NCBI GenBank assembly: GCA_965205865.1
Contig: CBDBHR010000029.1
Coordinates: 352,001-416,000, forward strand
Origin: a bacterium
Lineage (GTDB): Bacteria; SAR324; NAC60-12
Direction: 5' to 3'
Length of the DNA: 64,000 bases
This document shows, piece by piece, positions 1 to 36,690 of this stretch (position 1 is its first letter; the number at the start of each line of letters is the position of its first letter). The notes under the pieces are model-generated. The model saw nothing but the letters and a program-made list of their open reading frames with translations, did no database searches and had not been told where the DNA came from. The position numbers were made by a program, and so were the translations under genes.

Positions 1-765
1 CTTCGTTTTACTGTCCTTTTTACCTGTCTCAAAAGCCATCATCTTAGAGAGCTTATTCATCTCCTTGATGAGGAAATCAAAATTTCTTTCACTGATCTCA
101 GCGATTCCAAATGTATCAAGGGAACGCCCTCGATGGTAGCTTCGCTCCACGAGACGAGTCAATATCGACGAATCAGTAGGCCAAGCTGTATTTCCTTTTA
201 CAGAGGTGCTATCCAGTTTTAAAATATCAAAATCGTCCAACTCTTCATCGAGAACCATTCGAATTTGAGCATCGAAAATAAACTGTCTGCTCTCGTTGCT
301 GACAGCATTGACATTATCAAGGATTGTACTCGCTCCCGGCATTTTCAATCCACGGTTGAGCAGAAGCAGATGCAGTGTGATTGACTCTGAAAGAAATATT
401 TGGGCCGTTTGGGATTTGATACTTCCTAAGTATCCCCGAATCATCATAAAAAGGTAGACTAAAAAAGCCGACATCCGAGGACACCCTATTTCCAGCCTCA
501 GTTCTTCCGGCTTCAATTCCTCATCTTCTACGGGAAGATGAGGAAGCCATGGATTCCGGGCTTCCTGCCATCGTTTATCCTCTAAACGCTCTTTCTTTTT
601 ATTTCTTGCGTATTTCTCCAAATCCTGTTCAATTTTGTCCAATATCTCCGGCTCTCGCTCAGACAATTGATCAAGTTCTGATAAGAAATTTTCAAATTCT
701 GTATCAGGAGCGCTTAAAATAAGATGTTTTTCTGCTCGAATGAATGGTTTCATTTTGGGTGCCAT
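1..765 (-). mobile_element. ISNCY/IS5-like DDE transposase, N-terminal part (runs off the window)
   Basis: Manual translation from ATG 765 gives MAPKMKPFIRAEKHL...GCPRMSAFLVYLF...LDSTSVKGNTAWPTDSSIL. The DST..(N)..(W/Y)PTD motif is shared with 7759-9330 and 37411-37780. Confidence 0.75.
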
Positions 766-889
766 AATTCTTAATATTGAAGTTATTCACAGTGATTTCA
801 ATGAATTATGGCACTTTTTAACCTCAAGTTAAAGATATAATTCTAAAAAATACCTTTTCGGCTAGGATCTAGCTATTGGTGATGGAGCC

Positions 890-1449
890 ATGGGGTTTTG
901 GGCTGCCATGGATGAAGTATATCCTCAGACACGTCATCAGCGCTGCTGGGTACACAAAACAGCTAATATCCTTAACTCTCTGCCCAAAAGCTCACAGCCT
1001 AAAGCTAAAGAGGCGATACATGAAATCTGGCAGGCAGAGACTAAAATCAATGCGGAGAAAGCCTTTGAACTCTTCATTGAAACCTATCAGGATAAATATC
1101 CAAAGGCCACCCTTTCTCTACAGCAAGATCGTGAAGAGTTACTGGCCTTTTATGATTTCCCTGCTAAACATTGGCAGAGTATACGAACCAGCAACCCGAT
1201 TGAATCCACCTTTGGTACCATAAGGCACAGAACTAAAAGATCAAAGGGCTGTCTCAATCGTGAAGGGATGCTGCACATGATGTTTAAGCTGGGACAATGC
1301 GCAGAAAAGAATTGGAGAAAGTTACGTGGCTTTGATTACCTGGCAAAGGTGATTGAAGGTGTACAATTCTCTGATGGAATCGAGGTGATTCCTGAAATCC
1401 GGATTGCCGCTTGATTTTTAACTCAAACACCACTTTTGACAATAACTCT
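890..1449 (+). pseudogene. IS256-family transposase, C-terminal fragment with right end
   Basis: Motifs QRCWVHK and IRTSNPIESTF. Probable terminal IR CACCACTTTTGACAATAACTC at 1429-1449. N-terminus missing. Confidence 0.85.
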
Positions 1450-32083: not shown

Positions 32084-32196
32084 CGCTCTTTTTGCAAAAT
32101 CTCCACGGCCGCTCCTAATCACCAAAGGTCTCGGGAGGAGACCATGACTCAATCCTATGTCTAGGCCTTTTCTAACAAATTAAATACCAATATGCA

Positions 32197-34235
32197 GTCA
32201 CCGTAAAGAACTGACTTATAGTGGTTTCCAGCCACCTTTCGTCATTCCTCCGGTACAAATCCGGACGTGCGCTGCTAACGCATCCGGCTCCTGCTTCGAG
32301 TCAGACGCTCAAACGTTGATTCGGATACGGGTGGGTTGTCCTTACAGAAGGAATGTGTAGTTTGACCAGTACTTTGAAGCGTTCCCAGTTCATCCTCTTT
32401 GCTTTGTGACTCCTCCGTCTTAGTGATTTGAACCACGTCCGATGGATTTCCGTGCGAAAAGCATTCAAGGAACTCCGGTTGCCGGGGACTCCATAGTAGT
32501 TGTACAGACCGTTTAAAACAGACCTGAGCCATTTTCCTTGTTCATGCGCATTTTCATGACGTTTGCGTTTCGCTTCAAGTTTGATCTCTTTGAGCTTCTT
32601 TCGCAACCTTTTGGAAATGGTGAGACGGGTGAGCTTGAATTTTCTATCCTTTATCCGAGTGTCACAGACATGAGTGAATCCTGAAAAGTCGAAACTTTCC
32701 GGTTTTCCCAGACCTTGTTTTTCCCGGTTATCGGCGGCAAATCGCCCGAACTCGATGAGGCGTGTTTTCTCTTCATGTAAAGTCAGTCCAAATTGAGAGA
32801 GGCGTTCTCTTAGTTGGCGATTAAATTTCTGGCCATCTTCAGAATATTGAAAACCCACGACGAAATCATCCGCATAGCGAATGATGTAAACTTCCCCCCG
32901 AGCTTCCCGCCTTCTCCATTGATTGACCCATAGATCTAAAACATAGTGCAGATAGATATTTGAATAGATTGGAGAAACTACCGAACCTTGTGGTGTTCCG
33001 ACCACCGTTTCAGACCACTTCCCCTCTTCGATGACTCCGGCGCGCAACGTTTTCTCTGCTAAACGCAGAATCCTTTTGTCGGAGATTCGATGCTCGATAA
33101 ATTTCAGCATCCAATCATGCTGAATTGTGTCGAAAAATCCTTGAATATCCGCATCTAAGATGTAGCTCACTTTCCGTTGGGTAATGGCCACATACAAAGC
33201 GTCTAAGGCTTGATGTTGGCTTCGTCCGGGTCGGAACCCGTAACTAAACCCAAGGAAATCCTCCTCATAGATCGATTCCAACGTCCAAACAAGGGCTTGT
33301 TGTACGATCTTGTCTTCAAGTGCGGCTATTCCGATTGGCCTTTGACGGCCATCCGGTTTAGGAACCCACACTCGCAGAGAAGGGTGAGGACGATAACGTT
33401 CTTGGTGGATCCCCCATCATAAAAAGGTAGACTAAAAAAGCCGTCCGAGGACACCCTATTTCCAGAGTTCGTTAATTCCGGGCTCCATCGATCCTCCCGT
33501 GCAGATCGTTAATCCGCTCCAGGAGATTTATGCCATACTCATTCCAGGTCTCCTCGTCCACTCCCGCCGCTGAGTTGCGATTGAGATCAAAGTAAGCTCT
33601 CCGCAGTAAGTCAGGGTTGATGTGATGAAAGAGATTGTTGAATTGAAGATGGGGGTTCCTCTTCGCCCTTTGGCGCACCCTGCTTAAACCGCTCTCTGAT
33701 TTTACCGGCCTCTGAGTTCCGAACACAGGAGGGCAAGCAGAATTCCTCTCAGCCAAGTCCCTTTGCTCCACAGGCTCCGTTGATTTCCTTTGCATTGTTA
33801 CTCTCTACAAATGATCTCATTGTTCGCCGCTTCATCGCTACTACGAACTTGTCCGACTTCCTGAAAACGTCGATGTCGGGGTTATTTATTAATTTTCCCG
33901 ATCCGACTACCAATGGAATGTTGACAGTCGTCTTCAGGATCTCCCAGGTTCCGATCAAGAAACTTCCACACATGCACCGGGTCTTCGACTCCGCCAGGCT
34001 CGACCGGGACTCACGCTAACGCCTTCGGTTGATGTTGCCTTCCCCACCAGACTACAAGGTCAGCACCTGAAACTATGATTTCGGAGCTCAATACCGAGCC
34101 TATGTTCTCCCCTGTCAACGCTTAGCGTCTATCCTTGCGAATAACCACTCATGACTCGGGGACTCGGCGGGTCGTTACTGCCTTACCGAGTAAGAGACTT
34201 TCACTCTCTATTTCTTGCCAGCTTTCCTGGCGCAC
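32197..34235 (-). mobile_element. Group II intron (IIB-like, endonuclease-less IEP), full length
   Basis: 5' GTGCG at 34235. Domain V GAGCCGGATGCGTTAGCAGCGCACGTCCGGATTT. Domain VI ends ACGGTGAC at 32197. RT ORF in domain IV. Confidence 0.92.
32301..33795 (-). pseudogene. ltrA: Group II intron reverse transcriptase/maturase, broken by an 82-bp insertion
   Basis: AAGVD, PKPDGRQRPIGI, GFRPGRS, GTPQG, YADD and maturase X domain. Removing the 82 bp restores a 470-aa frame. Confidence 0.9.
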
Positions 34236-34288
34236 AGCCTGACCCCAGATGGATGAAAAACTCATACGCTTAAGACAATTTCTTAATA

Positions 34289-36690
34289 CATGACTTTCGG
34301 CTAAATAAATATTAACGAAATTTAAGTGTCATTTTTCTTAACTTCTCGATATAATCGCCGTATGCCAGGTGAAATAAAACCTTAAGCCCAAGGCGATTTC
34401 GTTGAGAACTATCAAAAAAGAAAAAGAAAGACTAGCAGAAATTCTTAAACTCTTTAAAAAGGTTGAAGAGTCAGTTCTCTCTGTGAAAGAATATTTTCAA
34501 AACCACCAAACTCCTATCAGTATGAGGCAGTATAGTCGCTTAAAGAAACGCTATACGCAGCAAGGCGTAGCTGGTCTTGCCGATCAGCGTCAGGTCGGTA
34601 ACGCACGAAAAATTAAACCCGACGAGATCAGTTTGGTTCATGGAACCTTGGCCTATAATCGCAACCTAACGTCCCAATCATTACAAGATGAATTGCAAAA
34701 TCAATGGGGAATTACGGTAGGCCAACGTCGTATTGAGCAAATCCGACAAGAGTTTAATTTAACGCGCATTAAGTCACAAACGATTCAGCAGGAAACACTC
34801 CCGTTTGCCGGTATTGAAATTTTTTCAGCCTTAGCGCAATATGTTGGTCTTCTCGAGCATTGGAATATTACGATTCAACAACGTTTACAACAAGTCCAAG
34901 AAACGCCATCGCCAAAAGCCAATAAAGGCGGAGATCATATCCGAGCCCGTCATCGTGATGGCACCTTCTCTGCCCGCTACAATCGTCTGGCCAGCGTTCG
35001 TCATACCAAGTTTGCCTCGATCACCGATAAAGTCAAAGATAAAGATTTCAGTAGATTCACCCTTTCTCAATTAAAAGCCGAGAATTTAAAGCGAAAAAAT
35101 TTAGCCCTCTTGTTTTTACCTTTAGTCACCAATAACGGTGCCATGCGTCATGTGAATACCCCCTTAGGGAATGCTTTACGATACGCCTGTGGGTACAATT
35201 ATAAAAATGCCACCCTGGACAAATACCTCAGAGAACTCAAGTATCTTCAAGTCTCGGCAGACTTGATTAACTGCAACGCTCGGTTTTGGCATCAATTTTG
35301 GCAACAATATGATGCTCCGGATCACAAAGTGGCCTGTTATTATATCGATGGTAATGTTAAACCTTTGTGGTCCTCCAAACGCTGCCGCAAAGGTAAAGTG
35401 ACGATGATGGGCCGCGTGATGGGATGTATCGAACAAGTGGTGATCCATGATGGCCATGGCCGGCCACTTTATCTGCGAACCTTTTCTGGCCATGCGGACT
35501 TACGAGAAAATGCGCTGCGGACGATGGATGAATTGGACATCGTTTTAAATAAAAAACGAGAGTCCCGCGCTAAAGAATCACCTGGCAGCCGCGCATTGAT
35601 CATTGATGGGGCGGGCAATGCTGTTCAAACACTGAGAGCTTTTTCAGAATCGGACTATCATTATATTACCATTCTCGATACCAATCAGATAGTAGATCGC
35701 AAATTTAAGCATCTGAAAGCGCCGCAACGTTATCAGTACGGTGAAGCCTTCCTGATTGATTGCCGCATCGAGTTAATGGACTCAAAAGAATCAGGCTATC
35801 TCTACGAGAGCCGCGCGCTGCGGGTTCAGTGGGATAATGGTAAAGAATGCTGTTTAGTCACCAGTATCCCCTCAAACCTCTTTTATGCTTCAGAAGTGGT
35901 CAAGGCTTATTTTGATCGTTGGCCCTATTGCGAAAAACAATATGCCCTGATGAAGGCCGCGACCTGTTTTAGTCAAGTGGTGGGTTATGGGAAAAAACTT
36001 TTGCCGGATGAAAATACTTTAGAAAAAATCGAAAAACTTCAAACCGACTTGCGAAAACTGCGGCAGGAATTAAAAATTCCGCTTTCGAGAATTACAGTCG
36101 AGGAGAAGAAACTCCAGGATTTATTTGAGAAAGAACGTCAATTTAAAGAAAGAAGCACAATTAACAAAAAAGGCCAACGGGATCAATCTCAACGAAATCA
36201 GGAAAATCTTGAATCTTGTCAGAAGGATATCCGAAGGATTCAACGTCAAATAAAGACGATAGAAGAAGCCTTCAAAAAACAGTTTCAGACTCTACGGCAA
36301 AAGAGCAAAGAATTCGCGCGTATCCAGGGTAAACGGAAAGTTTACCATGTCGATGTTGAACTCGACCAACTAATGACCAGTTTTCGACTAACGCTGGCAA
36401 ATCTTCTCGTTTTTCTGGCAAAGGAAATTTTAGATCATACGCCCATAGAAATGAATACCTTGATCCAGTCCATCTTATTTTTATCAGGAAGAATTGAACA
36501 TCTCCCGGATCGTCGAAAAATTGTCATCAACAAAAATGAAAAAGATCCTCAGTTTATGAATAAATTACAGAAGGGCTTATCGAAGCTTAACGCCCTAAAA
36601 ATCAGGTACTCCAGCGGGGTGGTTTACGAATTTGTCTTGAACTAATGGACATTTAAATTTCGTATATTTTTGATATAGCCGAAAGTCATG
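34289..36690 (+). mobile_element. Intact 2.4-kb insertion sequence of unclear family
   Basis: Perfect 15-bp TIR CATGACTTTCGGCTA / TAGCCGAAAGTCATG. 5-bp TSD TAATA at 34284-34288 and 36691-36695. Confidence 0.9.
34402..36645 (+). CDS. Large HTH + DDE transposase with long coiled-coil (747 aa)
   Basis: N-terminal HTH-like region. Candidate catalytic residues in YYIDG, IIDGAG, YFDRWPYCE. Fills the TIR-bounded element. Confidence 0.75.
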   Translation: MRTIKKEKERLAEILKLFKKVEESVLSVKEYFQNHQTPISMRQYSRLKKRYTQQGVAGLADQRQVGNARKIKPDEISLVHGTLAYNRNLTSQSLQDELQNQWGITVGQRRIEQIRQEFNLTRIKSQTIQQETLPFAGIEIFSALAQYVGLLEHWNITIQQRLQQVQETPSPKANKGGDHIRARHRDGTFSARYNRLASVRHTKFASITDKVKDKDFSRFTLSQLKAENLKRKNLALLFLPLVTNNGAMRHVNTPLGNALRYACGYNYKNATLDKYLRELKYLQVSADLINCNARFWHQFWQQYDAPDHKVACYYIDGNVKPLWSSKRCRKGKVTMMGRVMGCIEQVVIHDGHGRPLYLRTFSGHADLRENALRTMDELDIVLNKKRESRAKESPGSRALIIDGAGNAVQTLRAFSESDYHYITILDTNQIVDRKFKHLKAPQRYQYGEAFLIDCRIELMDSKESGYLYESRALRVQWDNGKECCLVTSIPSNLFYASEVVKAYFDRWPYCEKQYALMKAATCFSQVVGYGKKLLPDENTLEKIEKLQTDLRKLRQELKIPLSRITVEEKKLQDLFEKERQFKERSTINKKGQRDQSQRNQENLESCQKDIRRIQRQIKTIEEAFKKQFQTLRQKSKEFARIQGKRKVYHVDVELDQLMTSFRLTLANLLVFLAKEILDHTPIEMNTLIQSILFLSGRIEHLPDRRKIVINKNEKDPQFMNKLQKGLSKLNALKIRYSSGVVYEFVLN

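Follow-up and report, generated by a model that had tools for sequence, protein, structure and literature searches.

An 82-bp insertion interrupts a group II intron copy in the DNA analysed here, a stretch of 64,000 nucleotides (the window), and it appears to have been made by a single template-switch event with multiple jumps guided by microhomology. This reading is well supported by the sequence comparisons, because other copies of the intron have an empty site, the insert is unique in the genome, no substitution was found in its matched blocks, and entry at ATCC and exit at the sole ATCCTC of the donor are both shared with the intron. The donor is the transposase gene of an insertion sequence (IS). 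As to the enzyme, a template switch by the reverse transcriptase (RT) of this copy or of a sister copy, made while the intron RNA was being reverse-transcribed, is probably the best single explanation, although we hold it with slightly less than even confidence.

The genome comprises 4.74 Mb in 30 contigs, with scores of 91.9% for completeness and 3.7% for contamination, and the window corresponds to C29:352001-416000. The identity of the element as a bacterial group II intron is given by the covariance match of its ribozyme to RF02005 (table 1). The element is multi-copy, with 84 matching pieces amounting to 35.3 kb and having different flanks. Four intact full-length sister copies measure 1969 bp and encode an unbroken RT of 470 aa, with the RVT_1 domain and YADD and with the endonuclease domain absent. 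The window copy is 99.3–99.6% identical to its sisters and shows no indels relative to them in the 1969 bp flanking the insert; it also has nine substitutions unseen in the four full-length sisters, and is therefore not demonstrably newborn.

Table 1. Positions of the features discussed in the text (window coordinates; IS positions are those of the IS copy in the window).
Feature	Position	Strand or reading	Remarks
Group II intron copy	32196..34246	minus	2051 bp with insert; extent from matches to other copies
Intron D1-D4 region	33979-34201	minus	Rfam RF02005, 164 bits, above cut-off
Intron domain V/VI	32197-32292	minus	Rfam RF00029, 28.8 bits, sub-threshold (cut-off 40)
RT frame, N-terminal fragment	33472..33795	minus	ends at stop created by insert
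RT frame, C-terminal part	32301..33371	minus	RVT_1, Pfam PF00078, E=1.3e-36
Intron sense-strand hairpin	33494..33525	minus	directly ahead of departure; CUCCUG GA GCGGAUU AAC GAUCUGC A CGGGAG
82-bp insertion	33413..33494 (equally 33408-33489)		absent from six other copies; unique in genome
GATCC, left copy	33408..33412		last intron bases before the switch; ATCC common to IS 432-435
GATCC, right copy	33490..33494		ATCCTC at 33491-33496 common to intron and IS 577-582
Insert block ATCCCC	IS 432-437	plus-strand reading	ATCC common with intron; GAAT then omitted
Insert block, 29 nt	33415-33443 = IS 442-470		exact match; ACA then omitted
Insert block, 22 nt	33444-33465 = IS 474-495		exact match; CCTC then omitted
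Insert, patchwork half	33466..33489		AGTTC = IS 500-504, then TCGTTAAT
Insert block AATTCC/ATTCCGGGCT	IS 515-520 + 553-562		IS hairpin skipped between ATTCC repeats; TCCTG then omitted
Insert block CCATCG	IS 568-573		exact match; TTT then omitted
Insert block ATCCTC	IS 577-582		also the intron sequence next in line
IS copy in window, right part	1..875	minus	runs off window; interrupted 707 bp leftward; transposase start 765
Donor stretch within ISNCY-like transposase gene	432..582	minus	one among 34 equally good copies
12-bp hairpin in donor	517..545 (stem 517-528/534-545)	minus	omitted from copy between ATTCC repeats 516-520 and 553-557

The first-pass annotation of this DNA had described an 82-bp insert, flanked by GATCC, that inactivates the RT gene, and had proposed a search for intron copies without it. 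Such copies exist: all six other intron copies that span the site (two on C29, one on C30, two on C26 and one on C24) are empty, and in these CTTGGTGGATCC continues directly into TCCCGTGC with nothing between (in summary form, the junction is GGTGGATCC joined to TCCCGTGC). The inactivation is equally clear, as the frame that is continuous over 470 aa in the intact copies is split in two in the window copy. Because the insert shifts the RT frame, this copy can move only with RT provided by intact sisters.

The GATCC repeat is microhomology and not a transposition footprint. If a miniature transposon had inserted and duplicated 5 bp of its target, GATCC would also stand on both flanks of the insert, but this explanation has next to no probability: the genome search returned the insert only once, terminal inverted repeats were looked for in the insert and none were found, and its sequence derives from the interior of a transposase gene and not from IS ends. 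An identical 82-bp element of this kind elsewhere, which the annotation had named as the alternative to look for, is thus lacking, and an origin as miniature transposon or by IS insertion is refuted in this genome. Likewise unsupported is a restriction cut at the BamHI-type site GGATCC with fill-in of the GATC ends; the genome contains 1186 such sites (observed/expected 0.88), and the site is not avoided.

The donor element is an IS of 1819 bp that encodes a DDE transposase of 509 aa. The closest model for this protein was ISNCY (NF033593, E=3.7e-81), with a score of 273 bits that lies below the cut-off of 325, and the score against Pfam DDE_Tnp_1 (31.7 bits) was above the cut-off of 23. The relevant stretch is spanned by 34 near-identical IS copies and one diverged copy, and the copy nearest to the insert lies 33 kb away. 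It had been assumed that the donor was positions 432-582 of the window itself. This was not sustained, as judged from sequence identity: the window copy is only one candidate among 34 that match equally well. Choosing the donor by SNPs failed, since the IS copies vary at three sites, all of which fall outside the copied blocks, and the donor copy therefore cannot be named. The diverged copy (C28:329610) was rejected as donor, its substitutions being missing from the insert.

An exact-match parse bore out the earlier description of the insert as a condensed copy of IS 432-582 with its blocks in the original order. The copy is collinear and gapped, with seven omissions and no substitutions in the matched blocks, and the scar as a whole contains ten discontinuities. 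The first 54 nt of the insert match the 34 IS copies with E=4e-16. For the second half (33466-33489), the collinear score against IS 496-600 was reached by one of 5000 random genome segments and by none of 5000 shuffles, and the IS match of this half is more than chance. Within it, GTTA (33471-33474) is not derived from the IS, but is part of an 8-mer, TCGTTAAT (33469-33476), that is identical to intron 33506-33513 and is found 16–23 bases past the junction in the intron. An 8-mer match covering GTTA occurred in 237 of 20000 random 200-bp windows, and the intron origin of TCGTTAAT, which rests on this match, is suggestive rather than proven.

Microhomology was found, as had been claimed, at the entry (ATCC) and at the exit (ATCCTC), and the largest skip, over the 12-bp IS hairpin, is indeed bounded by ATTCC repeats. 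ATCCTC is present once in the 1819-bp IS and is absent from its other strand, so that it was homology to the intron that determined the exit. The combination of empty alleles (six), a donor elsewhere (34 copies) and microhomology at both ends is that of a template switch, but microhomology is not present at every internal jump. Three internal jumps have it (TC, AAT, ATTCC), whereas at the five small skips of 3–5 nt (GAAT, ACA, CCTC, TCCTG, TTT) neither microhomology nor a hairpin ahead was detected. A fold of the whole donor RNA gave no pattern that accounts for these small skips, no terminator or RNA 3' end was found at the IS entry point, and none of the models discussed here predicts or explains them.

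One possible source of the gaps is a donor that already carried them, for which the annotation had proposed a search. None of the 35 IS copies has the gapped form, which indicates that the gaps arose during the event itself. It is also very unlikely that a full copy of 151 bp later lost pieces, or that the insert was copied from an unseen diverged IS variant. The omitted bases do sum to 63 (151 versus 88), a multiple of three, but the single gaps (4, 3, 4, 5, 3 and so on) are out of frame, and the substitutions of the diverged copy do not occur in the insert. Seven deletions against no substitution in the matched bases, within an intron still 99.3–99.6% identical to its sisters, leave no time for seven separate deletions and thus assign the gaps to the event and not to later decay.

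The point at which the intron sequence is left coincides with a predicted polymerase block. The hairpin directly ahead of it in the intron sense strand was present in both the minimum-energy and the centroid folds of a 191-nt stretch, with a predicted energy of −16.4 to −17.8 kcal/mol as RNA, and its closing G is complementary to the final C of GGATCC. In 40-nt windows, 6 of 1929 intron positions were predicted to have a hairpin of equal stability no more than 5 nt ahead, and five of these positions represent the departure hairpin itself; this statistic comes from a post hoc test and depends on window size (12 of 1940 positions at 30 nt, 51 of 1920 at 50 nt and 194 of 1910 at 60 nt). By these predictions the departure site stands out as an exception with respect to compact structure, and does so less when larger folds are admitted. 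The jump that by-passes the IS hairpin likewise begins at a hairpin foot and in the same direction (predicted −14.2 kcal/mol, 0.8% of IS positions). In DNA form the departure hairpin is predicted at −6.4 to −7.0 kcal/mol, a value equalled at 50 of 1929 positions (top 2.6%), and its complementary strand at only −2.1 kcal/mol. A related intron was detected in one of 40 other genomes (G008) at 81–86% identity, and there both the insert and the same hairpin are absent. The overall pattern is one of a polymerase that stalls at structure, releases and re-anneals by microhomology.

Intron and transposase gene share the minus strand, in agreement with the annotation and as seen from gene and covariance-model positions, and the hairpin lies ahead only for a nascent plus strand. 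The TCGTTAAT segment is a copy of AUUAACGA, the apical loop of the departure hairpin with its shoulders. The match of GTTA to this loop, the two hairpins and the ATCCTC exit together fix the growing strand as cDNA-sense, i.e. it is the plus strand, made from left to right, in the sense and direction of intron cDNA. By chance, donor and intron would agree in sense half the time, and such agreement together with a cDNA-sense growing strand would occur in about one quarter of cases.

From these data the following course of events can be read. A strand of cDNA sense halted at ...GGATCC, at the foot of the compact, very stable hairpin in the intron sense strand, and resumed at ATCC (IS 432), with a transposase gene of matching sense as its template. 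IS 432-582 was then copied without substitution and with seven omissions, one of which by-passed the 12-bp IS hairpin between the ATTCC repeats. Midway, the exposed loop of the intron hairpin may have been touched for 6–8 nt (TCGTTAAT) before return to the IS template, and the intron was re-joined at the sole ATCCTC of the IS. Intron RNA and transposase mRNA may have served as the templates, copied by the group II intron RT, in which case the small skips without microhomology could represent end-to-end jumps among pieces of a decaying mRNA. The full sequence, in which the intron RT was halted by a hairpin of its own RNA, captured a cellular mRNA piecewise, probed the loop and returned, is put forward tentatively.

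The annotation had interpreted the insert as a jump of the intron RT to the transposase mRNA and back, or as synthesis-dependent end joining. Template switching as such was supported. The hairpin, which is far stronger as RNA than as DNA, the strand direction and the sense of donor and intron, which is as required, lean towards the RT, on the strength of predicted structures that would also suit a DNA polymerase working on this strand. The RT is also favoured by a scan that covered every repeat family and looked for copy-specific inserts of 20–400 bp. It gave 131 clusters, 13 of them with no more than two full copies, and the window insert, which is located in the intron family, was the only mosaic of another element among them. 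Two singletons (C29:517800 and C3:123854) were rejected as further events because they are inserts only, with no donor, and a third candidate (C28:327479) because it is an intron boundary.

Against the RT, it has to be considered that no feature of the sequence demands RNA, since a DNA polymerase copying the same strand leaves an identical scar. Transposase genes as a rule yield few transcripts, while the IS is plentiful in DNA form (34 copies). According to the available portions of the literature, template switching, annealing at microhomologies and 'discontinuous' products that skip part of the template are all known from group II intron RTs (Park et al. 2022 bioRxiv), and departure from a broken template can also lead them to switch (Lentzsch et al. 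2021, PMC8363836). They are, however, processive, and the switching documented in the accessible part of the former report is end-to-end with about 1 nt of pairing, and not internal with 4–6 nt (Park et al. 2022 bioRxiv).

Template switching at the DNA level by host polymerases, either in replication (fork stalling/template switching, MMBIR) or in synthesis-dependent end joining at a break, is an alternative only somewhat less likely than the RT reading. Here the nascent plus strand would stall at a hairpin in single-stranded minus-strand DNA, invade one of the 34 IS copies at ATCC, copy it discontinuously and re-anneal at ATCCTC. The microhomologies at entry, exit and hairpin by-pass are the textbook signature of such a process, no DNA repeat of this kind is more abundant than the donor, which has 34 copies, and the hairpin is still predicted to form as DNA at the energies given above, so that an RNA step is unneeded. 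On the other hand, the hairpin has much less stability in DNA than in RNA and all but disappears from the opposite strand, and the same sense and the plus-strand direction each had a prior of 50%. The intron family makes up 3.6% of the repeated DNA (0.74% of the genome), and random placement in repeated DNA would have hit it with a chance of 3.6%.

The intron RT could also have acted on DNA in the manner of polymerase theta, by extending a break or free 3' end of the intron DNA on IS DNA, with the help of microhomology, before joining; the break or end itself may have been made by an abortive intron invasion beside the hairpin. The portions of the report at hand describe a group II intron RT that carries out MMEJ, snap-back synthesis and discontinuous synthesis with skipping of template on oligonucleotides of DNA, and that mends a Cas9 break in E. 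coli (Park et al. 2022 bioRxiv). This activity is known from other enzymes, however, and would give no reason for the shared sense of the donor, and signs of a break are absent, with no loss of flanking sequence and no non-templated bases. We regard such a course as fairly unlikely.

In public data, independent reads with the insert were not found: among the 24 runs listed, none contained at least half of the 23 sampled words (best 0.48). The contigs of four runs from four studies (X1, X2, X3 and X8) carry the intron without the 82 bases, the empty joint leading from 33407 to 33490 in three of them and from 33409 to 33493 plus one letter in the other. These contigs cover the flanks and the IS and have nothing at 33472-33488, and in three of the four runs the IS was present as a separate contig with ACA in place behind 33443. 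As they come from other samples and drop rare variants, they say nothing on whether the insert was absent from the source of the genome.

These data nevertheless raise the question whether the insert is an artefact, such as a chimeric molecule or the consensus of a single read, that came about in library preparation or in assembly. In favour of an artefact, it can be said that all four public contig sets have the empty junction only, that the junction pattern had no matches in genome_contigs and metagenome_contigs (the intact junction likewise had none in genome_contigs), and that a genome with 91.9% completeness and 3.7% contamination may be a bin of thin coverage. An artefact is nonetheless rated unlikely, because a k-mer assembler cannot stitch blocks of 5–29 nt and the indel-free intron flanks are not those of noisy reads.

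The event works like known template-switch mutations, whether by RT jumping or by iterative switching at the DNA level, and is a new instance of these. Most descriptions of FoSTeS and MMBIR come from structural variants in humans and from amplification in E. coli, the segments usually being far longer, with no RNA or RT involved. They share with the scar short templated insertions, iterative switches and microhomology of 2–6 nt, according to the parts of the literature available (e.g. PMC5120786, PMC11293582). Switching from one template to another by group II intron RT (PMC3683930; Lentzsch 2019 bioRxiv 10.1101/792986; PMC8363836) is similar in that discontinuous templates are joined in one cDNA by successive switches, also expected on a broken or damaged template (PMC8363836); unlike the cases in the accessible text of these reports, the large jumps in the scar are internal, involve 4–6 nt and are recorded in a genome. 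The MMEJ and 'discontinuous snap-back' synthesis of the G2L4 and GsI-IIC RTs (Park 2022, bioRxiv 10.1101/2022.03.14.484287) resembles it in the annealing of microhomologies, extension and deletions by skipping. As far as the available portions of that work describe it, the substrates of this synthesis were oligonucleotides of 50 nt and, in E. coli, a Cas9 cut in thyA, whereas the scar has no evident break and a distant gene as donor.

Chimeric retrocopies made by LINE RT, such as the tripartite pseudogene of Magnaporthe (PMC2104539), are likewise mosaics of same-sense transcripts from one reverse transcription. In contrast to the scar, those in the accessible part of that report are eukaryotic, consist of long pieces joined end-to-end and form a new insertion rather than a patch inside a retroelement. 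If mRNA capture is the true course, the scar would be a bacterial counterpart of these LINE-made copies. Classical work on Neurospora is said to have found the capture of mitochondrial tRNA by retroplasmids. In such fungal retroplasmids (PMC9925561), as in this intron, a retroelement contains a piece of cellular RNA, ascribed to RT; from the portions of this source available, they differ in being organellar plasmids with whole tRNAs at the plasmid ends and no gapped patchwork.

In a non-exhaustive search of open-access full text, no publication was found that describes a fragment of a cellular gene within a bacterial group II intron and attributes it to template switching. Within the scope of this search, mRNA capture, if true, would make the scar the first genomic record of the capture of cellular RNA in a bacterial group II intron, and copying of cellular RNAs by RT would be a route both to the capture of gene fragments and to the decay of intron copies. 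A DNA-level origin would instead make it an unusually fine-grained bacterial example of iterative template switching guided by microhomology. The scar is a mutational fossil, a natural trace of template hopping of a kind rarely met in a bacterium, and not a system, and is of moderate interest, more so if dependence on RT is shown. Either reading explains how this intron copy lost its RT, and an earlier study, in its available part, names point mutations and fragmentation as routes by which introns are inactivated (Molina-Sanchez and Toro 2015, PMC4496777). With donor, empty alleles, departure hairpin and ten discontinuities, the scar is fully resolved and offers a concrete substrate for the question of whether these RTs leave structured templates and copy cellular RNA in vivo.

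The majority of copies in the group II intron family (about 40 places in the source genome, G000) are ORF-less. In these copies, position 519 of the intron query is joined to position 1866 (window 32318 to 33665), with about 1 base in common at the junction, and nearly the whole RT gene is absent. Three public runs also contain this junction, in the form of a loose end.

A shortened form of the ISNCY-like insertion sequence (IS), the donor of the insert in the RT gene, was also detected. One internal deletion is shared by three copies in G000 (at C26:85168, C27:20042 and C27:21404, which correspond to window 549); it fuses sequence from window ~20-75 directly to window 549, 4 bases beyond the 12-bp hairpin of the IS. 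As the deletion is identical in all three, the shortened derivative, which is presumably non-autonomous, has spread in this genome.

The region containing the compact hairpin that adjoins the insert junction is 81-86% identical in a related intron of another genus (locus L002, G008:C392, 1400-1580), but the hairpin itself is not kept there. On this sequence comparison, the structure is specific to the present lineage rather than a conserved RNA element.

The right junction of the insert creates the motif ATCGAT (window 33487-33492). Filling in of a GATC overhang after a restriction cut would likewise yield this motif, but support for such a cut was looked for and none was found.

The IS copy at the start of the window (1-875) is interrupted, 707 bp left of the window, by another repeat of 1696 bp. 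Together with the transposase gene fragment adjoining this copy, which is listed below with a reading frame beside the intron, the interruption indicates that these are nested mobile elements.

Features adjoining the window-start IS copy and the intron
Feature	Window position	Strand	Adjoins	Domain match
Mutator-family transposase gene fragment	890-1414		IS copy 1-875	PF00872, E=9e-28
747-aa reading frame	34402-36645	+	Intron	Weak HTH_32 match only (24.5 bits, under cut-off)

Repeats (>=150 bp, >=93% identity) make up 20.4% of the G000 genome. One stretch of this assembly, C3:123800-124000, looks far GC-richer than the genome average of 48%, which, together with the genome's contamination estimate of 3.7%, raises the possibility that C3 belongs to a different organism.
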